This document shows positions 1,531-51,775 of a stretch of DNA of 64,000 nucleotides, one piece after another. This DNA is from an uncultured Nitrospiraceae bacterium (lineage in GTDB: Bacteria > Nitrospirota > Thermodesulfovibrionia > Thermodesulfovibrionales > UBA6898): the NCBI GenBank assembly GCA_963811165.1, contig CAWEQH010000001.1:32001-96000 (forward strand), read 5' to 3'. Position 1 is the stretch's first letter. Each line of letters starts with the position of its first letter. Position numbers and translations under genes: made by a program. The notes beneath the pieces are model-generated. The model was not told the DNA's origin. It saw nothing but the letters and a program-made list of their open reading frames with translations, and did no database searches.

Positions 1531-2553
1531 CTATGGGCCGAACACCTTATTGAAAAAGCCTTCGTCCACGTCAAACACAACCTTTACCACCGCAATATTG
1601 CCGGGCAAATCAAGATTTCTGGCTTTTATTATATCCTTTTCCGTGGCAACAATCCACCCGGCCCCAGACTGCTGAGCTTCTGTTTTTATTCTGGACATGT
1701 CCTCCCGGGTATACTGATAATGGTCTCTGTAAGCGCGGAACCCTCGTATCTCGGCTCCTAACTCTCGCAGGGTCCTTCGAAACGCATCCGGTGAAGCGAG
1801 TGCGCAAAAGCCGAAGACCTTCTTCCCCGAAAGCCAGCCGGCCGGCTCTTCCTGACCTGAGCGGAGAGTGCATGACAAGGGAGTATGCCCTGCAAGAAAA
1901 AGGGCAGATCCCTGGTTATAATGCCTTACTACATTTATCACGTCATCTTCTTTGCCGCCTTTTTTTCCAATGTCTCCTCCGACCCTCGTCAACACGATAA
2001 TGTCTGCCCGCTTAAGAGACTTGATCGGCTCCCTCAGCCTCCCAAAAGGAAGAAGCATCCCGTTTCCGAAAGGGTTTCCCGCATCGATAAGGACAATATC
2101 CTTATCCCGGTAAAGGCCCCGATGCTGAAAACCGTCATCGAGGATAAAGAGATGGGTCTTTCGTTCCGGATCACCGATATGGAGTTCCCGAAGGGCAAAC
2201 ATGCCTGCCTCGAACCTATTGCTTCCCTTTACAATAGGTACCCCTTTTAGTCTCTCGGCCATGAGCACCGGTTCGTCCCCGGCATCTTTTACGGAAAGCA
2301 GCGGCCCTTCCCCCCTCGTCACTAAACAGGGACCTTTTGCCCTGCCCTTGTATCCGCGAGTTAGAATGACCGGCTTCATGCCCCTTTTTTGGGCCTCCTC
2401 TGCGACTGCGATCGTTGCAGGCGTTTTACCGGTCCCGCCGACAGTTATGTTGCCTATGCTGATCACCCTGCACGGCAGACGTTTTTGATGCGCCAGGGAA
2501 TAGCGCTGCTTAGCGGAAAAACCGAGATAATATAGGAATTCAAGAAGGTGCAT
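1531..2553 (-). CDS. lpxK: Tetraacyldisaccharide 4'-kinase
   Basis: ISIGNITVGGTGKTP, RGYKG, GDEP, ILDDGFQH, LLPFGRLRE, TEKD motifs. Confidence 0.96.
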   Translation of the reverse strand: MHLLEFLYYLGFSAKQRYSLAHQKRLPCRVISIGNITVGGTGKTPATIAVAEEAQKRGMKPVILTRGYKGRAKGPCLVTRGEGPLLSVKDAGDEPVLMAERLKGVPIVKGSNRFEAGMFALRELHIGDPERKTHLFILDDGFQHRGLYRDKDIVLIDAGNPFGNGMLLPFGRLREPIKSLKRADIIVLTRVGGDIGKKGGKEDDVINVVRHYNQGSALFLAGHTPLSCTLRSGQEEPAGWLSGKKVFGFCALASPDAFRRTLRELGAEIRGFRAYRDHYQYTREDMSRIKTEAQQSGAGWIVATEKDIIKARNLDLPGNIAVVKVVFDVDEGFFNKVFGP

Positions 2554-2596
2554 ATTTAGTCGGGAAGTTTCCCTGTCTGGCGGAGAGATGAACTTG

Positions 2597-2917
2597 TCAT
2601 AGAAACTCGATATGGTTCCTCATGTCTTTATTGGTCAAAACATTGACAATCAGTTCTACCCCTCTTATGCATTGCCCAATTGAAACATTTTTCGAGTGCG
2701 AAAATATTATCCCGCTGTGGTCAAATCTGTCGGCCATTATCAGAAAATCGTTATCGTGGGTTAATATTACGGCTTTCATCTCCGATGCCTTTCTGACATG
2801 AAATTCATCAGGCTTGCCATAAAGCCCAAGTTCGCCGGCAGATATTACTTCTATGCCTCGTCTGCGCAACCCCTCAATAACGGAACGCTCTATATTCTCA
2901 TCTGCATAAATCTTCAT
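2597..2917 (-). CDS. DUF5615 PIN-like toxin (VapC45/Mut7-C-like)
   Basis: MKIYADENI...ILTHDNDF...HSGII; start overlaps the stop of the upstream DUF433 gene. Confidence 0.85.
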   Translation of the reverse strand: MKIYADENIERSVIEGLRRRGIEVISAGELGLYGKPDEFHVRKASEMKAVILTHDNDFLIMADRFDHSGIIFSHSKNVSIGQCIRGVELIVNVLTNKDMRNHIEFL

Positions 2918-3225
2918 CCAAGCTTTGCTCTCAGCTTGGAAGGATATTTTTTCTTAAGCTGGGCGAGAATGGTCTGATCTTCCCGGTATTTTTTATCAAA
3001 CAAGGTCTTGTGCTCATAATAGTACGACAACGCATCGTGGACCTGTTCGAGTTTCAGGTGGGGGTATTCATCAACAATACTATCGGCGCTCATACCCATA
3101 AGCTCGTATCTGACTGCAATATCCAATACCTTTATGCGTGTGCCGCTGATCACAGGCTGCCCGCCTGCAATTTTTAGGTCCGTGGATATATATGGGTGTT
3201 TAGTCCTCTTAACTGCGACCGGCAT
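2914..3225 (-). CDS. DUF433 family antitoxin
   Basis: IAGGQPVISGTRIKV...IVDEYPHLKLEQVHDALSYYY, typical of DUF433. Confidence 0.9.
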   Translation of the reverse strand: MPVAVKRTKHPYISTDLKIAGGQPVISGTRIKVLDIAVRYELMGMSADSIVDEYPHLKLEQVHDALSYYYEHKTLFDKKYREDQTILAQLKKKYPSKLRAKLG

Positions 3226-3277
3226 ATAAGACCTCCTTTTATGACTTTATTTTAACTAAATACCTACCTAAAATCAT

Positions 3278-3404
3278 TTGCGTCCTTTCTTAATGTAGCC
3301 TGTCCCCCCATTTATTCCCTATACTATTCTATCCTAACAAAGCTTAATCATCCCAAAAATGTGCCTGTCCCTTTTTCTTTTAAAGTTTGGTGTCTGACCC
3401 CATA
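3278..3404. repeat. Cluster of short GCCTGTCCC / GTCTGACCCC-type motifs in AT-rich spacers
   Basis: AATGTAGCCTGTCCCCC (~3292), AATGTGCCTGTCCCTT (~3358), GGTGTCTGACCCC (~3389) and a weaker GCGTCCT copy (~3280). Confidence 0.45.
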
Positions 3405-3417
3405 AAATGACTTCCCC

Positions 3418-3456
3418 AGTAACGCCCCCCAACCCCCTCTTACGCTAAGAGGGGGG
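3418..3456 (-). repeat. Palindromic repeat family A, left flank of DUF559 gene
   Basis: CCCCCTCTTA-CGC-TAAGAGGGGG hairpin (3433-3455) preceded by a GTAACGCCCCCC tail. Confidence 0.85.
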
Positions 3457-3807
3457 CATCTTAACTGCCATCCTGGCTATAACGTCGTCTGTATTGCTAA
3501 GCACTTCATGATTCCAGAACCGCAATATTTCGATCCCCAAGGCTTCCAGATAGTCTGTACGGGCATCATCATATTCCCTATTTTCATCGCAGGCATGCTG
3601 TCCGCCGTCCAATTCTACTGCGAGTTTCATTTGCGGACAGTAGAAGTCAAGTATATAAGGACCGGCGCTGTACTGGCGATAGAATTTCTTTCCGTAAAAT
3701 TGTTTGTTCCGTAAATGCAGCCACAGAGCCTTTTCAGCCTCTGTCTGATTACGTCTCAATTCCTTTCTCCGTTGTTTTTGCAACGGATCGTTCAATGTGA
3801 ATTTCAT
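3445..3807 (-). CDS. DUF559 (Vsr-like) endonuclease domain protein
   Basis: RRKELRRNQTEAEKALW...KFYRQY...YILDFYCP...VELDGGQH...D..RT.YL...G..ILRFWN. Confidence 0.92.
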   Translation of the reverse strand: MKFTLNDPLQKQRRKELRRNQTEAEKALWLHLRNKQFYGKKFYRQYSAGPYILDFYCPQMKLAVELDGGQHACDENREYDDARTDYLEALGIEILRFWNHEVLSNTDDVIARMAVKMPPS

Positions 3808-3831
3808 TCTATTTGCAGTAGGCCCTCACAA

Positions 3832-3868
3832 CCCCCTCTTAGGTTAAGAGGGGGGAAGGGGGAGTTAT
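3832..3868 (+). repeat. Palindromic repeat family A, right flank of DUF559 gene
   Basis: CCCCCTCTTA-GGT-TAAGAGGGGG hairpin followed by a GGAAGGGGGAGTTA tail; inverted relative to the 3418-3456 copy. Confidence 0.85.
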
Positions 3869-3878
3869 TTTATCAATT

Positions 3879-6800
3879 TCATCCGCCCTCAATAATTACC
3901 CTCTCCTCCTCCGTCATCCCATAAAGCCCATAAACAATCTCATCTATCTTCTCATCCGTAATTGTAATCTCCCGCTCAATCTTTTCACGCTCTGCCGAGG
4001 GAGGAAGGGCATTTTTCTTTTTGTGAAGTTCGAGCATGCTGTCGACGAGAGAGACGAGTTTGTCGTGGGCAGCTTTTTCCGAGGGGTTCTTGATGTCGAT
4101 GGTGCGGATAGGAAGTTTTTCTATAAATTGCGTCCAGAAACGGACGTAGCCACCACGAAGCAACGTTCCGATGGAAAGCAGATACTTAAACAACAGCGAA
4201 GAGTTAAGAAGCCCAAGAACATAGCGAGGCGAAAGAGCTACGTCTTCCAAAATAATTCCGTAACCGGTCTTATAAAAGTGACCACTAATGTCGAGTGTAA
4301 AAGAGGCCACATTATTGTAATCCGGCACGATGATTTTCTGCCTCTGAAATAGTGTCATGCTCTTCGGATAACCAAAGGCGTACCAATTCGGACCCTTAAA
4401 TCTTCCTTTTTCGCGTGCAATTAGAGCTGATCTGTTTTCTTTTAGAAAGGCAAAAGCCAAAGGGAACTTGGTGTCCATCTCCGTAGTGGTCAGAAGTCGA
4501 AAACTGTTGTCCAAGTATCTCGTACGGGCAAATCAGATACGAGTTTGTTTCCGGCTCATCGAATCTGCGGATCTGTTTCCCACGCAGAAATGGTCTGGCA
4601 ATGCCAGCTTCCATACTTACTTGAGTACTCTAATGATTTTGACATGCCTGTAATGGTTGTTCCAGTAATTTTGCATTCGTCTAAAACAAAAACCTCAACT
4701 GCGCTTGTCTGAGTACCCACAAAGATATGAGCAATATTGAACCAAGCTTTACAGGCATCTTAGCCAAGCGTTTAAACATACCAGAGAGGAACCGGCATCA
4801 ATGTTCCATCTGCGGCGTTAATGTCGTAATAAGCGATAGTTGCCCGTCCATAGCTTGGCTCCTTTCGTGCGCCATGCATTGAAGTAACGTCAACCTTCCT
4901 AAAATCACCTGTTTGCGCGGCGCTTTATTCAAAAGAGAAGACACGTATAAGTTTTACCCCGTCGAAATATTTCTTGACAACCGAAATGGATCTATCTCAG
5001 AGAGAATTTGCCCTTAGAAATAATACCTCTGAGTGGTTCCCCAATTTCACTGGGATTGAAAGAACTTATGCGGTAAGATAAAACCTAGACGGCCTTTTAC
5101 ATTCAGAAAGACTCAATCCTTTTCGACAAAAATACATAAATATCATAGTTACCTTTACCGGCAGAGGTCATAGTGTTTCTAATAGAATTCAACTTCAACA
5201 GGCACCCATTCCTTCATATGCTGAAATCCAGCCATACGGCGGATTGCCAATCACGACATCGAACCCGCCGTTCGCCATAATCTCGCCAAAGCCGGTAGAC
5301 TTTGAATTCCAGTCAAAGGGTTGATGCTGCTTTTTGTATCATCATCGAACAATTGCCCGTCCAAAATATCATATCTAATAAGGCTGTTGCCGCATTTCAC
5401 GTTATCGCCCAGCGACGGCAAAAGGTGCTGCTTCTTCGGAAGCATTCCCCGCTCGCCTTCCAATGCCTTCAGATAAAGGCTCATCATTGTGATCTCGACA
5501 GCCTGGGGGTCGATATCCACACCGAAGATGTTATTTCTGAGGATCTTTGCCTTCTCGTGTAGCGGAAGACTTAACTCCTCAGGGGAAATCTTCCAGTAAG
5601 GGAATAAATGCAGCGTCTGCGCCTCTTTCTGATGTTCGCGATAATACTTGAGGTGATAATCGATGAGAAACTGATATGCGCCAAGAAGGAACGAGCCTGA
5701 CCCACAGGCAGGATCGAGTATCTTTATCTTTTCGATCTGCTTAGGTGTCTTGCCTTCGATGATCTTGCCGACGGTATTTTTGACGATGTATTCGACGATA
5801 TATTTAGGCGTATAATAGACGCCGCCTGCCTTTCTGACTTCCGGCTTCTCCTCGACCTTTACACGCTGAGGCGTGACGCGTATCGTGCTTCCTAAGTATC
5901 TCTCATATATGCTTCCAAGGAGTTCAACACCAATTGCGTCAAACCGATATCTGCTCTTGGGGAAATAGAGGTTCTCAATAATCTCCGCAAGCAGGCCGGA
6001 ATCCACCTCTGCTTTTTCGCAGGCATGGGGCTTAAAAATATCTCCGTTCAGGTCGTCGTTGATGTCATGGAAAAGGTCTACGAGATGAATCATGATGGAT
6101 TTACGTTTGCCTTCTTCTTTCCATTGGGCGACGATCTCCCACAATTCCCTGTCGGGCCTGATCCTTCTGTCTTCGGCGATGCGGATAAAGATGATCCTGT
6201 CAAGGAGCCTCTGGACAACGTCGTTCAAAAGCTTCACATCGAATTCAGGGTTCCGTTTATGGATGTCTTTAGCAAGTTCTGTCCGCCACAATGTAAGGTC
6301 TTCGAGAAACGACTTGTCAGGAGGGATCCTGAGCCTTTTGCTCTTTATGTCTTTCGGAAGAAGCGCCTCCAGGGAACCCTGCTCAACTCTTTCCTTCGAC
6401 AGTTCCCAAAGTTTTTCGGCATTGTCCAGATAGGTCGGATATTTGAAATCAAAGATCAGCCCTTCGTTCGGGTGGCGAGGGATCGGGCTTTAATGACGCG
6501 TCAAAGAGTTTGAATTCCTCAAAGTCGGTAAGCACCACAAAGTAGACCTCTTTGGTCGACCATGCGTAGCTTTTCGCCTGAAGGATATGGTTAATATCGT
6601 CGAGGGCTACGGAAGGCGCTTTCGCTTCGATAAAGAACTTTGTTGCGCCGCTTATCCTGAAATTATAATCGGGCCTGCCGCTTGTTTCCGGCGAAAGCTC
6701 GACAATTACATCCCTTTCATGGGGCGGCTTCTGTGCCTTGTTCTCTATGTCCCAGCCGAGCGCTTCAAAGAGCGGATTAAGAAAATCGATCCTAACTTGG

Positions 6801-6898
6801 GCCTCGGGATATCCTTTTGAGAGATAGTGGTGCTTGTCCTTCTCGAACTTGGAGACCAGGACCTGAAGTTTTTCTCTGAATGCATCAATGCCGCTCAT
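3879..6898 (-). CDS. Type IIG (Eco57I-like) fused restriction endonuclease / N6-adenine methyltransferase with TaqI-C-like target recognition domain; broken by several frameshifts
   Basis: Fragments 6449-6898 (RPDY...FIEAK nuclease), 5251-6291 (GGVYYTP, LDPACGSGSFL, GVDID), GFDVVIGNPPY at ~5235-5268 in another frame, and 3879-4514 (LGLLNS...QFIEKLPI...IDEIVYGLYG). Confidence 0.88.
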
Positions 6899-6995
6899 AT
6901 ATCTTCATCCCCTCAGAATTGTGGAGAGTTTGGGAGGCTTCTGTCAAGAAGAAATTCAAATCTTCCCAGCCCCTATTCCGGGATCACCATAATTG

Positions 6996-7051
6996 CCCCT
7001 CCCCCGGCTTCCTATCTTAAGAGGGGGGAACGAAGGCCGGGGGCGTTACTG
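6996..7051 (+). repeat. Degenerate palindromic repeat family A copy at the waaA-side edge of the insert
   Basis: ...TAAGAGGGGGGAACGAAGGCCGGGGGCGTTAC has the same hairpin half and GGGGG-GTTAC tail. Confidence 0.55.
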
Positions 7052-7074
7052 AGAAAAGGGAAAAAGAATATCCC

Positions 7075-8308
7075 TTACCCAAGATATTTCCGTATTATCT
7101 CCATCGCCCGGTCGACCGCTCCGGAGTTCCTTAGGAACAGCTCTCTTGCCTTTTGGCCTGCTGCTTTCGCCTTGTCAGGTGTAAGCAGCAATTCCTTTAT
7201 CTTTTGCGGAAGGGCTGCTGCTTCGACCTCGAAGGCAGCGCCTTCCCGGTAGAAGTCTTTTATAAAGGGGAAATTCTCCATATGAGGGCCGCAGACAATA
7301 GGTTTCGCCCAAAAAGCCGGTTCAAGGGGGTTCTGGCCCCCCGCCTCTTCAAAGCTTTTTCCGATAATTGCGATATCCGAAGCGCCATACACGGAAGACA
7401 GCTCACCGACCGTGTCAAGAAGCACGACACATGAGGCCGGCTGATTGAGACCGCTGATTTCAGTCCGCTTCACGATAGGGGATCCCGCTTTTTTTAAGAA
7501 TGCCCGCCACTTCCTCGAACCTTCTGGGGTGCCTGGGCGCCAGTATCAATTTCAGCTCAGGAAAAATCTTTCTGTTTTCTGCGAAGGCGGCCAGGATGAG
7601 TTCTTCCTCTCCTTTGTGGGTGCTCCCTGCAACGATGACAGGCCCGCCGACGGCCTTGGCCCATGCGGGTATCTTCTCCGCCACATCGATGTCGAACTTG
7701 AAATTCCCCAGCACGGAGATCTTCGACTCCTCTGCCCCGATCGAGCGTATTCTGTCTGCATCGACCTGCCCTTGCATACCAAATACGCTGACATAAGAAA
7801 AGACCTTTTTCATAAAAAATGATATCTTTTTGTACCCTCTGGCGGACCTCTCCGATATCCTGCCGTTAAGGACCAACACAGGAACTGCGTTTCGGGCCAG
7901 CGCCCTGAAAATATTAGGCCAGAGCTCGGTCTCCATAACCAGGAATGCCCGGGGCTTTGTCCTTTTGAGACAGCGGTCCAGTATATAATTCAGATCAAAG
8001 GGGAGATATACCACAGTTGTCCCTTCGGGCGCCTTTTCGAAAGCGACCTTCTGCCCGGTATCCGTAATCGTCGAAAGTATCAGGGGTAATTGCGGATATT
8101 CCGCCCTTAATTTCTTAAGAAGCCGGATAGAGGCCCCGACCTCCCCCACGGAAACGGCATGGACCCAGATGGAGGAATCACGCTCCGGTACATACCCGAA
8201 CTTTTCCCTCAGCCACTTTCGTCTTAATTCCTTCGGCCTTCCGAGATATTCGGGGACGAATAAAATCAAAACCGTAACTGCGTAAAGCAGACTATACACG
8301 AGGAACAT
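7075..8308 (-). CDS. waaA: 3-deoxy-D-manno-octulosonic acid (Kdo) transferase; +1 frameshift in a C run near 7480
   Basis: WVHAVSVGE, ETELWPN, NGRIS, GNFKFD, AGSTH.GEE, APRHP in 7460-8308; LDTVGEL...GGQNPLEPA..GPHMENF in 7075-7473. Confidence 0.95.
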
Positions 8309-11632: not shown

Positions 11633-11720
11633 ATTAGCGTGCCTCCCGGGGTTGGGGAATACCGGGGATAAATCACTATAATGGAGCGTGCGACAACGTG
11701 CGTTCATTTGGAGGGGGTTA

Positions 11721-14700
11721 GTGACAAAGGGAATTGTTAAGCTTCTGGTCCTGATGATTGCTATTGTGCTTTCGCCGTCCTCACGGAGTTTCGCAGCTGA
11801 TAACGACATAGAGAAAGACCTCCAGGAGAAACTCAAACAAAGCAGAGCGCTTCTTGAGAGGGCTGGGGAGAAACTCAAGGCCGGGGATTCCGCTCAAAAA
11901 GAGATGAGTACGCTTGTGGCCCTCTCTGAAAACATCAAGGCGTCTCATCTGCTGCTTAAGGAGAAGTTCAGGATCGGGGAGGAAGACATAAAGACGAGGG
12001 GGGCCAAGGCACTGGAGAGGCACAGGGTCATGGAAGAGGGTTATCAAAAGGCCCTTGCGGAATATCTGACTCTGATGGAAAGCCTACAATCCTCGGCAAG
12101 CACTGTAGGGGCGTATGGCAATACGTCCGATCGGGCTTCCCCCCCTGATAAGGGGGGAATGAGGGGGGTTACCGAAGACCTCAAAACGCTTCTTGATCAA
12201 ATCCTTCCTAAAACCAAAAGACCTATCATCGGCAGCCTCCCATACAGAAACCTCAATTACCCATCGAAAGAGCCCTACGCAGGGCCTTCCATCAGACCCG
12301 CATACAAGGGCGGCAACAAGACCGTAAGCCCCGACGACACAAAAGAGACTGCTGAGGCCCCGATATCCCAAGAGATCGCTACCCTTGCACAGTCCCTCAA
12401 CTGGAAGCCCGGTGCTTATCTATGAATACGTCAAAAAACAATATAGATACGAATGGTACTGGGGGTGCATGAAAGGGGCGGAGGAGACATTAAGGCAGAA
12501 GTCCGGAAACGATTGTGACCAGGCAACCCTGTTTGCGGCCCTTCTTCGCGCATCGGGGTTCCCGACAAGATACGTAAGGGGGACGATTGAGTTCTTTCCT
12601 GATATAAACAGCCATGAAAAGGAACAACCTTAGGCATAGACGACCCGGCAAGGATAGCAGAATATTTTCAGAAGGCCGGTATCCCCTATAAGCCTTCATA
12701 GCAGGGGGAAAGATAACGAACTTCCAGATCGAGCACATCTGGATCGAAAGCCAGATACCCTATGGAAACTACCGTGGGGCGATCATAGACGACAGCGACA
12801 AGACCTGGCTCGGGCTTGATACCAGCATAAAGGTGAAGGGCTATACCCATAAACACCCCGATGGATATCTTCGAGCAATCAGCCATGGGCAATCAGCTCT
12901 TAGTAATCAGGGATGAATATATGGGCACTATTCGAACACAAACACCGCTGGAATATGTAAAGGGCTCCATCGATAATTATCTTGCCCAAAGTCACCCGGG
13001 CATGACCTATAGTGATCTTCTCAGAACAAGGACATCGGTACCGCAAGTACTGGGCCTTCTCCCCAACAGCATGCAGTTTCAGCAGAGGAGGATAACGAAT
13101 GAATACACCGAGATACCGGATGAACTCAAGCACAAAGTAAGATTTACGGCAGTCGATAAAAATAACAACAGAACTCTTCAGCATCACAGTGGATACCATG
13201 AAACTTCCAATCAACAGATATGCGTTAAGCTATGAGCCCGAGACAGTTGAAGACCAAGAGACAATAGATTCCTACGGAGGACTGGACAATACACCGGCGT
13301 ATCTTGTGAGATTGAGGCCGGTTCTCAAAGTAGACGGAGATATGATCAGTGGCAGGCAAGGATGGACTGCCAATGGGAGAGGAGCATTCCCTGAAGATCG
13401 AACTCATATCCCCAAACGGAACAGAAACGATAACTAATACCCATATAACAGGCAATGTAGTTGCCATAGGGATAGTAGCGGGAAAAGTAACCCCCTCGCG
13501 CTCCCCCTTACCCCAAGGGGGAGACAATACAGGAGCGCCTGCTGAAAATAGGATGCGGAGACGATACTTTATAAAGAGGCGATCAATTACATCGACAGAT
13601 GGACAAGGCGGAGGATGAGCTTGCATCTCTTCTGCATCTGGACGATCACAAGACCAATACCCACGGTGGTAACAGTCGGCGGAGTATAGACGTCACCTAT
13701 CTCCTGGACATGCCGCATGGGTTTCAGTGGAAAGGGGTGTTTATCGATGCAAGTCTAAGGGCGATCAGACACTGTAGGGGCGCATGGCGATGCGCCCCCT
13801 GCAAGGTGAACAGGAAAAAGACATTCATGCAGCTTCGGCCTTCAGGGGTCGATCCTTGAAAACAGGATATTCGAGGATGATTTCCGGGTGGATTCCATAT
13901 CGACGGCAAAACTGTTTGAGATAGCCAACTCAAACCAGATACCCGATATTGTACGATAGACAAGTCGAATATTGCGTCAGTTCTTCCAACTCTTCCCTTT
14001 GATACAAACATTAAGGAAGACATATCGAACAGTGTAAACCAAAACCTGAAGGTCCGCATTCCACAGTCAGAAATAACCTATGACGACTGGACGGGAATCG
14101 GCTATATAAAGGAAAATCCTGAAACAGGTGAAGCAGGCTATATGCTCACGGGCATGATAGCAGGGGGAATGACGGCTGTATCGCCCGACAAATGGCTATC
14201 CGGAGATTTAAGGAACACATTGAAGAAACCTTATTCGGCAAACTTGTGATAACTCCTGTAATGGTAAATATAATCTTCCCGTATGATGGGGCAACTCTGG
14301 CTGTTTCGCCAATAGACGTTGAGGGGATTGTGAGCGATCCATTGCAAAGGTGGATGTAAACGGAATCAAGGCGGAAGTGTCTAAAGACTGGGAGGTTTAT
14401 CGCAAGGGGAGTATCTCTAGCAACAGGCGTAAACCAGATAACAGCCATTGCAACGTCGTTGATAGGGAAGAATGATTCACAGACCATCAAGTGTCAATTA
14501 TCAGCCAGCGCAGGTATACACCCATGAATATCTCCATAACGTATCCGGCTGACGGAGCATGCGATCAGCAGACCACGACGATGGTAAGAGGGACCTTTAC
14601 GTCTGATGCAAACGAGATATCGATCAAGATAAATGGAATGGCCGCCGACATATACGGCAACCAGTTTGTGATCAATAACTGTGCCTCTTGTGGATGGAAG

Positions 14701-38715: not shown

Positions 38716-39153
38716 ATGGGAGTTAAGGTCTTGTTTGCAGGTCCGGCAGTTGAGATTGACGGAGTTAAATACCACCATCATCCCAACGGTGGCGGTCTGG
38801 TCGCTGAGACAGCGGATGTTGCAGTAACAGCTTTCATAGGCCCTTTTGCAAAAATATGCGGCAAGGCAAGGGTATCTGATGAGGCATTTGTATTCGGCAC
38901 CGCCTGGATCTTCGATAACGCTGAGGTAAGGGATAATGCCCAGGTTTTTGGTAACGCAAAAGTTTTTGGAGATGCGAGGATATGTGATGATGCAAAAGTT
39001 TATGGCTTTTCTTCAGTTTTTGGAGATGCAAAGGTTTCAGGCTTTGCAGAGGTTTTTGATTTCGCGGAAGTCTCAGATGACTCCAGAGTTTGCTGGAAAG
39101 CTAAGGTCTCAGGCGGGGCAAAGATAACCGGAGAGGCCATAGTAGAAAAGTAG
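38716..39153 (+). CDS. Hexapeptide-repeat (left-handed beta-helix) protein
   Basis: HPNGGG motif followed by many [DN]AxVxG repeats; AGGAGG RBS. Confidence 0.8.
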   Translation: MGVKVLFAGPAVEIDGVKYHHHPNGGGLVAETADVAVTAFIGPFAKICGKARVSDEAFVFGTAWIFDNAEVRDNAQVFGNAKVFGDARICDDAKVYGFSSVFGDAKVSGFAEVFDFAEVSDDSRVCWKAKVSGGAKITGEAIVEK

Positions 39154-46467: not shown

Positions 46468-46588
46468 TTATTCTGCCATTAGTTCAAACAAAAGAGACCG
46501 TCGATAGCACATCTTATCACAAAAATTTATTTTTATTACTTGGGCAATTAAATAGAAGTCTTAGTGGCTGTCATTATATCTTGTCCGA

Positions 46589-46663
46589 TAACCCCTCCCC
46601 GCCTCCCCTTATCAGGGGAGGATCCGCCCCTTCCCCCTTGATAAGGGGGGATAGAGGGGGGTT
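46589..46663. repeat. Inverted pair of palindromic repeat family A with no intervening gene (REPIN/MITE-like)
   Basis: TAACCCCTCCCCG-CCTCCCCT-TATC-AGGGGAGG, ~11-nt spacer, then CCCCCTT-GAT-AAGGGGG-GATAGAGGGGGGTT. Confidence 0.85.
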
Positions 46664-46723
46664 GGTTTCCCGACCTGTTGTCATTATCCCTCTTGAGATA
46701 TATACTTCAGACATGGACATAGT

Positions 46724-51741: not shown

Positions 51742-51775
51742 GTAAGGGCGAACCCCTGTTCGCCCTGTATTTTTT
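51742..51775 (+). repeat. REP-like hairpin / possible terminator between trpB2 and trpF
   Basis: GTAAGGGCGAAC-CCCT-GTTCGCCCT followed by GTATTTTTT. Confidence 0.55.

Follow-up and report, generated by a model that had tools for sequence, protein, structure and literature searches.

The window analysed here, a stretch of 64,000 nt from the genome of an uncultured Nitrospiraceae bacterium (G000; 3.66 Mb, 95% complete), carries a small DUF559 gene enclosed by two palindromic repeats, and the question raised by this locus is whether the encoded nuclease is the partner of a dispersed repeat family and perhaps also its mobiliser. A sequence-only reading had suggested as much, with the nuclease in place of an HUH transposase. 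The pairing of gene and repeat proves to be real and general, and it is probably a third nuclease–repeat partnership beside RAYT/REP and Ssn/SRM.

The gene (3445..3807, minus strand) is intact and free-standing, and specifies a YcjD-like protein of 120 aa, belonging to what is called clade A below. It matches PF04480 with an E-value of 1e-36 (125.5 bits, gathering cut-off 20.6), and scores 88.5 against the narrower NCBIfam equivalog PRK09767, below the cut-off of 218. Its closest named relatives share 91% (Thermodesulfovibrionales) and 81% (Nitrospirae) identity. Six acidic or histidine residues (E25, D54, E65, D67, H71 and D80), taken to be catalytic by comparison with Vsr, are all present, and are kept in 97–99% of 125 DUF559 genes. 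Among six clade A genes dN/dS is 0.08–0.18 (measurable in 12 of 15 pairs), and the gene is under purifying selection. The predicted structure (pLDDT 85) matches NGO0050 (3HRL, 48% identity), the catalytic domain of I-Bth0305I (3R3P; TM 0.63, E 4.5e-4) and Vsr (1VSR), which agrees with the fold proposed earlier, and the protein is a predicted Vsr-like PD-(D/E)xK nuclease. YcjD had itself been predicted to be a PD-(D/E)xK nuclease, in a passage that draws no link to repeats (PMC1189080). Profile and fold matching gave no Y1/HUH domain, GIY-YIG domain or DDE transposase in the window protein, and a single-protein query of viral contigs, an insensitive search, gave no relative; nor was any RNA data set listed as containing the locus. 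Rfam has nothing at E<=1 in 2500-7500, and a structured RNA was rejected there; an intron- or intein-borne homing endonuclease was likewise rejected, as the ORF is free-standing.

Both ends of the gene carry perfect 10-bp hairpins, CCCCCTCTTA-CGC-TAAGAGGGGG at 3433-3455 and CCCCCTCTTA-GGT-TAAGAGGGGG at 3832-3854, together the longest among the 786 inverted-repeat pairs listed for the window. With their purine tails, which point outward, they form a gene-3' unit on the minus strand (3420..3455, the tail beginning at 3420) and a gene-5' unit on the plus strand (3832..3867, the tail ending at 3867). The left hairpin encodes the last codons and stop of the gene (P-P-S-TAG), as the sequence-only reading had recognised, and P0001-P0004 end in the same way, so this hairpin-encoded stop is no assembly slip. 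The description of the flanks as two inverted hairpin-and-tail copies with outward tails is accurate for the window but incomplete, since the two flanks can be read equally as direct repeats and tails elsewhere usually point inward. They form a 40-nt direct repeat (D3, 83%), and alignment scores for the direct and inverted arrangements are 48 vs 42 in the window and 129 vs 51 in the relative L032. The reason is that the gene-5' copy has two tails, of which the inner (3816..3831, minus strand) has decayed in the window but is intact in L032 and L045; in both of these relatives the copy is a whole two-tailed solo, and in L046 the older hairpin has a more recent solo nested inside it. The window copy is thus atypical in its tails, rearranged and, as discussed below, vertically inherited.

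The earlier reading was modelled on this atypical copy, and missed both the nature of the tail and the kind of repeat. Each unit begins with a pyrimidine stem, a loop and a purine stem; after a short linker comes the tail, a mirror image of the purine stem. A strict detector for a hairpin plus third strand, which replaced a first, loose pattern rejected as unspecific (63 matches vs 22–33), accepts both window units and finds 84 matches in G000 vs 2 and 1 in two shuffled versions, so the repeats are not chance; ViennaRNA folds only the hairpin part. A triad test was applied to 139 perfect 8-bp hairpins at DUF559 gene ends, chosen without regard to their tails. All eight positions gave allowed triads in 121 of the 139 when each hairpin was read with its own tail, compared with a mean of 17 and a maximum of 32 over 1000 tail swaps, the loci being related and the events not independent. 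Opposite stem G the tail has G at 782 of 810 positions; opposite stem A it has A or T at 285 of 302 (A 158, T 127, G 11, C 6). T opposite A fits a T.AT triad and is not predicted by a plain mirror repeat. The tail can thus be read as supplying the third strand in a predicted purine-motif intrastrand triplex (G.GC, A.AT and T.AT triads). The window repeat has the architecture of the BoxC/PIT/TM motifs. BoxC/PIT/TMECO motifs fold as triplexes in vitro, and Holder et al. 2015 found no support for a stable triplex in vivo; they describe TM motifs as stalling polymerases in vitro and marking unstable loci, report no transposase or integrase remnant near them, and name no enzyme (PMC4666352). The stem of the window repeats, called type A, departs from the TMECO consensus, which is met by the flanks of clade D genes and beside ycjD; the corresponding type D pattern has no match in G000. 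To our knowledge, BoxC/PIT/TM repeats have been recognised since the 1990s with neither an enzyme nor a function attached to them.

The 84 matches in G000 group into 54 elements (15 of type A, 24 of type B, 6 of type C and 9 others), some of which will be chance. A second DUF559 gene in this genome (C8:182115-182432) belongs to clade B and has a type B flank. The list of dispersed copies given by the earlier reading must therefore be divided: those at ~7000 and 13487 belong to flank type A, the first as a degenerate two-tailed solo upstream of the type IIG restriction–modification (R–M) gene (6994..7048) and the second as a single type A-like hairpin and tail (13487..13523, minus strand), but those at 12139 and 46589-46663 are of type B, cognate to the second DUF559 gene. 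The former of these is a single unit inside ORF 11688-12425 (12137..12171, plus strand), and the latter a tails-outward doublet inside the remnants of a CGTC/SRM-type hairpin repeat (46586..46665). Gene-less elements have their tails outward. Type A solos carry the gene start context at one end and the last codons at the other, and may represent head-to-tail junctions of the cassette, as the gene with its two flanking repeats is called here. Among 10 close element pairs in G000, end-to-end bracketing occurs only around the DUF559 gene.

Several other repeats were seen in this genome. Of 18 type B elements examined, 15 sit inside CGTC/SRM repeat pairs with the spacer replaced (window 46545-46700 and 14 other sites), with empty versions at C8:146772 and C10:1163339; this is a composite of two repeat families multiplied as a unit, so another enzyme may have multiplied type B. 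CGTC-type repeats occur by the dozen in G000 (49 matches of a 10-mer), and at C7:6270-6625 (L238) a small GIY-YIG gene is bracketed by inverted hairpins of this type and looks like an ordinary Ssn/SRM member. GTAG-tagged, REP-like hairpins lie at 13774-13800 and 51742-51768, yet G000 has no Y1_Tnp/RAYT match. The elements at C4:417275 and C5:8874 are identical along with their 70-nt flanks, a duplicated segment or an assembly duplicate, and the short imperfect direct repeats at window 38853-39058, in multiples of 18 nt, are probably a hexapeptide-type protein repeat.

How general the pairing is was examined in 201 genomes of the class, incomplete assemblies of related organisms and so not independent. 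DUF559 has a match in 94 of them, strong (E<1e-20) in 75, with up to 11 matches per genome but mostly 1–3 copies. Flanks were recovered in full for 69 of 70 loci fetched at the outset and for 55 of 61 held-out loci; five further partial DUF559 matches below 1e-19 were left out. The motif lies within 150 nt of a gene end at 65 of the 69 and 50 of the 55 (115 of 124 in total), and at both ends at 43 and 34 (77 of 124), as against 1 of 63 per side in control windows 400–590 nt from the DUF559 gene. It might have been that homologues generally lack such flanks; this survey, which the sequence-only reading had proposed, settles the point in its favour. Both tails point inward at 34 of the 69 loci and only outward at 3. 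Inward tails overlap the start and last codons, at a spacing that is fixed across clades despite differing repeat sequences. Inspected by eye, loci titled Omnitrophica, Planctomycetia and Chlamydiae share this layout, a locus titled Pseudomonadota carries the 3' hairpin alone, and two of five distant metagenome loci had no clear flank.

The total number of repeats in a genome also follows the nuclease. DUF559-positive genomes have a median of 85 overlapping matches vs 5 in negative genomes, and 15 vs 3 within genera. For Y1_Tnp the figures are 28 vs 4 overall and 8 vs 5 within genera (p 0.58), with a t of 2.9 in a joint model. The motif adjoins 1 of 20 Y1_Tnp loci in one set and 0 of 30 in another (1 of 50 together), the 20 'RAYT-like' loci being picked by ORF length (about 225–250 aa) rather than by a RAYT profile. 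The proposed correlation of repeat load with DUF559 is thus borne out, whereas the opposing expectation, that load tracks a RAYT/IS200-type transposase, fails within genera and in G000 itself, where Y1_Tnp has no match. The correspondence with DUF559 has its exceptions: a strong DUF559 match is lacking in 14 of the 44 genomes where repeat matches exceed 100, and repeat matches number <=20 in 13 of the 75 genomes that do have one.

A more discriminating view is given by the repeat types. A tree of 72 DUF559 proteins, built by a quick method on 110 columns and leaving many forks open, has clades that carry distinct stem types. The cognate type lies near the gene at 13 of 19 loci in clade A (type A), 19 of 21 in clade C (type C) and 22 of 34 in clades D/H/Y (type D), with a single cross-match among the 74. 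The definitions of clades and stem patterns were drawn up once 70 of the loci had been inspected; in held-out loci assigned to a clade by protein similarity alone, the cognate type was found at 3 of 6 (A), 9 of 10 (C) and 4 of 6 (D), with no cross-match, five loci of ambiguous clade being left out. In clade A, flanks that form direct repeats outnumber those that form inverted ones (12 vs 4 of 19), and in clades C and D most are inverted. Linkage alone could give clade-specific flanks, so the stronger test is in trans: matches to each of the three stem patterns were tallied across the 201 genomes, less the copies <=300 nt from a fetched DUF559 gene. More than one DUF559 clade is carried by 30 genomes. 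Within the 75 DUF559-positive genomes, medians with and without the cognate clade were 5 vs 1 for type A (p 6e-5), 35 vs 7 for type C (p 9e-4) and 6 vs 1 for type D (p 2e-3), and none of the six non-cognate tests was significant. With family fixed effects over all 201 genomes the cognate terms had t of 5.9, 6.6 and 5.5 and the non-cognate terms 0.3–2.5; with family effects left out, several off-diagonal terms were positive, with t as high as 4.2. In the DUF559-positive set, then, dispersed copies of each type track the cognate clade only.

A related arrangement is found in Escherichia coli K-12, where ycjD ends in a BoxC-like hairpin and a TMECO copy lies 168 nt further on. Of four E. coli chromosomes searched, the two that carry ycjD have TMECO counts of 23 and 29, and the two that lack it have 2 and 11. 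The gene sits at a single, constant position in 3378 of the 5426 genomes of this species. We know of YcjD only as an uncharacterised E. coli protein. It has been noted between sapF and fabI, in a passage with no link to repeats (PMC12817139).

Whether the cassette moves is a separate matter. In the window it belongs to an island between waaA and lpxK (2554..7074, minus strand) that also contains pieces of the type IIG R–M gene (3879-6898) and a DUF433/DUF5615 pair (2597-3225), and that is absent in the relative G205. The cassette lies behind the same R–M gene end in L032, L033, L045 and L046, relatives in the genus and family, and is absent in L049-L051, where that gene end is present; the window cassette has been inherited with its island. 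The stretch 3228-3899 is missing from contigs of two sequencing runs, X1 (with 13 differences over 828 nt) and X5, and runs X3 and X6 hold parts of the cassette. The gap in X1/X5 suggested excision at first sight, and was then set aside as evidence for a precise event, since the breakpoints lie 190 nt to the left and 31 nt to the right of the cassette, outside the repeats, with 107 other letters between them. L032, L046 and L045 have a second copy of the R–M 3' end behind the cassette, and these duplicated ends, together with the position of the breakpoints, mean that ordinary recombination can explain the loss. The empty sites foreseen by the sequence-only reading were accordingly not obtained in precise form, this being the sole absence observed.

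Other features of the island and its counterparts deserve mention. The R–M 3' end (window 3879-4120) is present in 2–3 copies in L032, L046, L050 and L051, and small genes (toxin–antitoxin pairs, DUF559) lie between the copies, possibly a cassette-shuffling array. The R–M gene (3879-6898), waaA (7075-8308) and a long gene (from 11688 on, 11688-14500) are in pieces, and so many frameshifts in one window suggest assembly indel errors or decay. At L032:825-859 a type A solo stands apparently in frame in the same R–M gene, with extra bases and no duplication at its junctions; the window has none there.

Over a wider set of 42 loci (Pfam matches for 82 of 127 neighbouring ORFs) the neighbours are unrelated, e.g., cas6/csm1, gltX/glnS, lysA/dapF and guaB/guaA, and only four loci have R–M-related neighbours. 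Clade A cassettes adjoin cas6 in genomes of different families (L021, between cas6 and csm1, and L123), and the L119 cassette lies beside another CRISPR-associated gene. In G053 the guaB-guaA spacer is 494 nt and contains the cassette; of 13 other guaB-guaA loci, two have 22–25 nt, seven have 82–231 nt of other DNA and in four the genes are not adjacent, with no solo repeat seen by eye in the nine adjacent empty loci. In one clade, with tails outward as in the window, the gene is in frame inside HsdM, HsdR and HsdS-like genes (HsdS being a reading of the sequence), such fusions into R–M genes amounting to seven among the loci listed. The HsdM insert of 147 aa falls between adjacent residues 392|393 of a homologue, and the tails lie only a few codons from its ends. 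The HsdR case has 182 aa in place of 9, and all five listed homologues match in two pieces. No target duplication was seen in 16 type A contexts, the CGTC hosts or guaB-guaA, and the empty sites were too diverged or imprecise. Of the earlier proposal, then, the partnership with dispersed palindromes in place of an HUH enzyme is well supported; the terms 'mobiliser' and 'autonomous element' remain inferences, relatives having the window cassette at the same site.

Taken together, DUF559 is likely, judging from these patterns, the missing partner enzyme of BoxC-type repeats. The preferred mechanism, to which a probability of roughly 0.6 is given, is that the cognate nuclease binds the folded single-stranded repeat and nicks it, and that host repair copies repeats or the cassette elsewhere. 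The protein would be a sequence-specific nuclease for which the cognate repeat becomes recognisable once single-stranded DNA has adopted the predicted triplex fold. The nick would be placed in that folded, cognate repeat, and host break repair would then spread gene-less repeats and, more rarely, the whole cassette. A hydrolytic PD-(D/E)xK enzyme is unable to reseal the DNA it cuts, in contrast to an HUH enzyme with its tyrosine, so movement would be by nick-and-repair. Such movement would be homing-like and imprecise and would not leave a fixed target duplication, in keeping with the ragged junctions observed. We infer folding in the cell, binding, cutting and spread caused by cutting, binding and cutting from the co-specificity and from the precedent of SsnA, which cleaves single-stranded DNA close to the hairpin that flanks its own gene (PMC11893778); the least secure step is that cutting causes spread. 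The in-trans match would also be expected if repeats arrived with a cassette and then spread by another route, and G000 has about six type C elements although it lacks a clade C gene. Repeat-rich genomes with no strong DUF559 match, positive genomes poor in repeats, the overall correlation with Y1_Tnp, the want of a clean empty site or target duplication, the type B elements lodged in CGTC/SRM repeats and the want of support for a stable triplex in vivo (PMC4666352) also count against the mechanism. The broader idea that DUF559/YcjD proteins are widespread triplex-targeting nucleases, the engine of a third repeat-spreading class of selfish elements that would move by nick-and-repair with no transposase and have solos and doublets as cassette junctions, is tentative, and on balance we lean against it.

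It is also conceivable, though rather unlikely, that DUF559 cuts its own repeat in the service of the host, as a domesticated control on incoming or recombining single-stranded DNA, and is no agent of spread. SsnA modulates transformation (PMC11893778), most genomes have 1–3 copies under purifying selection, ycjD keeps its one site in E. coli and the window copy has stayed with its island; but purifying selection is equally expected of an active selfish gene, and a host function sits poorly with a scattered distribution (matches in 94 of the 201 genomes, as many as 11 in one), neighbours that differ at almost every locus, in-frame insertion into R–M genes and 30 genomes with several clades. 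Less probable again is that the repeats propagate themselves or are moved by the host, through replication stalling and template switching, and that DUF559 was captured once between two copies and co-diverged through linkage, with no contact of enzyme and repeat. The stalling of polymerases by TM motifs in vitro and their marking of unstable loci (PMC4666352) would suit such a passenger, as would linkage, which alone explains clade-specific flanks, and the many repeat-rich genomes without the gene. Tails that overlap start and last codons at a fixed spacing across clades with differing repeats do not suit it, nor do residues kept in 97–99% of genes, dispersed copies that track the cognate clade, or the end-to-end bracketing of the DUF559 gene alone among the 10 close pairs.

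The position of the window gene directly after a type IIG gene, the seven in-frame R–M fusions and a weak PADLOC match to mREase_II (E 2e-7) recommend a further possibility, a Vsr-like mismatch- or methyl-directed nuclease travelling with R–M islands where repeats pile up. With R–M neighbours at only 4 of 42 stand-alone loci, flanking repeats present whatever the neighbours and no C5 methyltransferase seen beside a DUF559 gene, this is very improbable. Spread by a RAYT/IS200-type HUH transposase is hardly credible and was rejected as largely refuted: Y1_Tnp presence does correlate weakly with repeat load, but it is unmatched in G000 (95% complete), the motif is near only 1 of 50 Y1 loci, the within-genus comparison is null, and eight genomes negative for Y1 and positive for DUF559 have a median of 78 repeat matches.

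The pairing opens BoxC-type repeats and YcjD to experiment with one 120-aa protein and short oligonucleotides, and a matrix of specificities is predicted by the clade-by-type table. Should the reading hold, bacteria would have an enzyme able to recognise non-B DNA, and triplex motifs in genomes would gain a biological explanation, as would the instability around them; new cutters of single-stranded DNA might also follow. The literature searched contained no earlier report of a pairing of DUF559 with triplex repeats; older CIR and BoxC papers may mention an ORF. Similar G/C-rich inverted repeats are reportedly present in Caulobacter (the CIR repeats of Chen and Shapiro 2003) and among the short dispersed repeats of cyanobacteria (Elhai 2008). 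Caulobacter, included as a control, has matches to the DUF559 profile.

Among known systems the repeats come closest to BoxC/PIT/TMECO, with which they share the pyrimidine stem, loop, purine stem, linker and G-rich third strand of a class II purine motif, as well as doublets in which two types of unit stand inverted, a clade D stem that fits TMECO and a K-12 copy adjoining ycjD; they differ in the type A stem of the window, which is outside the TMECO consensus, and in having a candidate enzyme, where Holder et al. name none (PMC4666352). I-Bth0305I (3R3P) and NGO0050 (3HRL) have the fold modelled for the window protein, but DUF559 is a stand-alone domain of 120 aa, in no intron or intein, and would presumably need the repeat, rather than an additional domain, for targeting. 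An insertion sequence with its MITE differs in that the cassette has no DDE transposase. REPtrons, as described by Di Nocera et al. 2013 (PMC3733652), likewise have a gene bracketed by cognate, dispersed palindromes, repeat-specific enzyme lineages and gene-less inverted doublets; unlike them, DUF559 has no HUH/Y1 domain or catalytic tyrosine, its repeats have no GTAG tag and overlap coding sequence, and the cassette is found at many sites, also in frame inside genes. Another close parallel is Ssn/SRM, where the gene of a small hydrolytic nuclease with a single domain lies beside copies of a hairpin repeat that is also dispersed, each homologue being paired with its own repeat variant; 71% of Ssn homologues have a flank and 42% both, compared with 115 and 77 of 124 for DUF559, windows and detector being different, and Chenal et al. 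2025 mention neither Vsr nor DUF559 (PMC11893778). DUF559 differs in being a Vsr-like PD-(D/E)xK and not a GIY-YIG protein, its repeat has a triplex third strand and no CGTC/NTS-like hairpin, and G000 has an SRM-flanked GIY-YIG gene separate from DUF559. The DUF559 system works like both Ssn/SRM and RAYT/REP, and is a member of neither.
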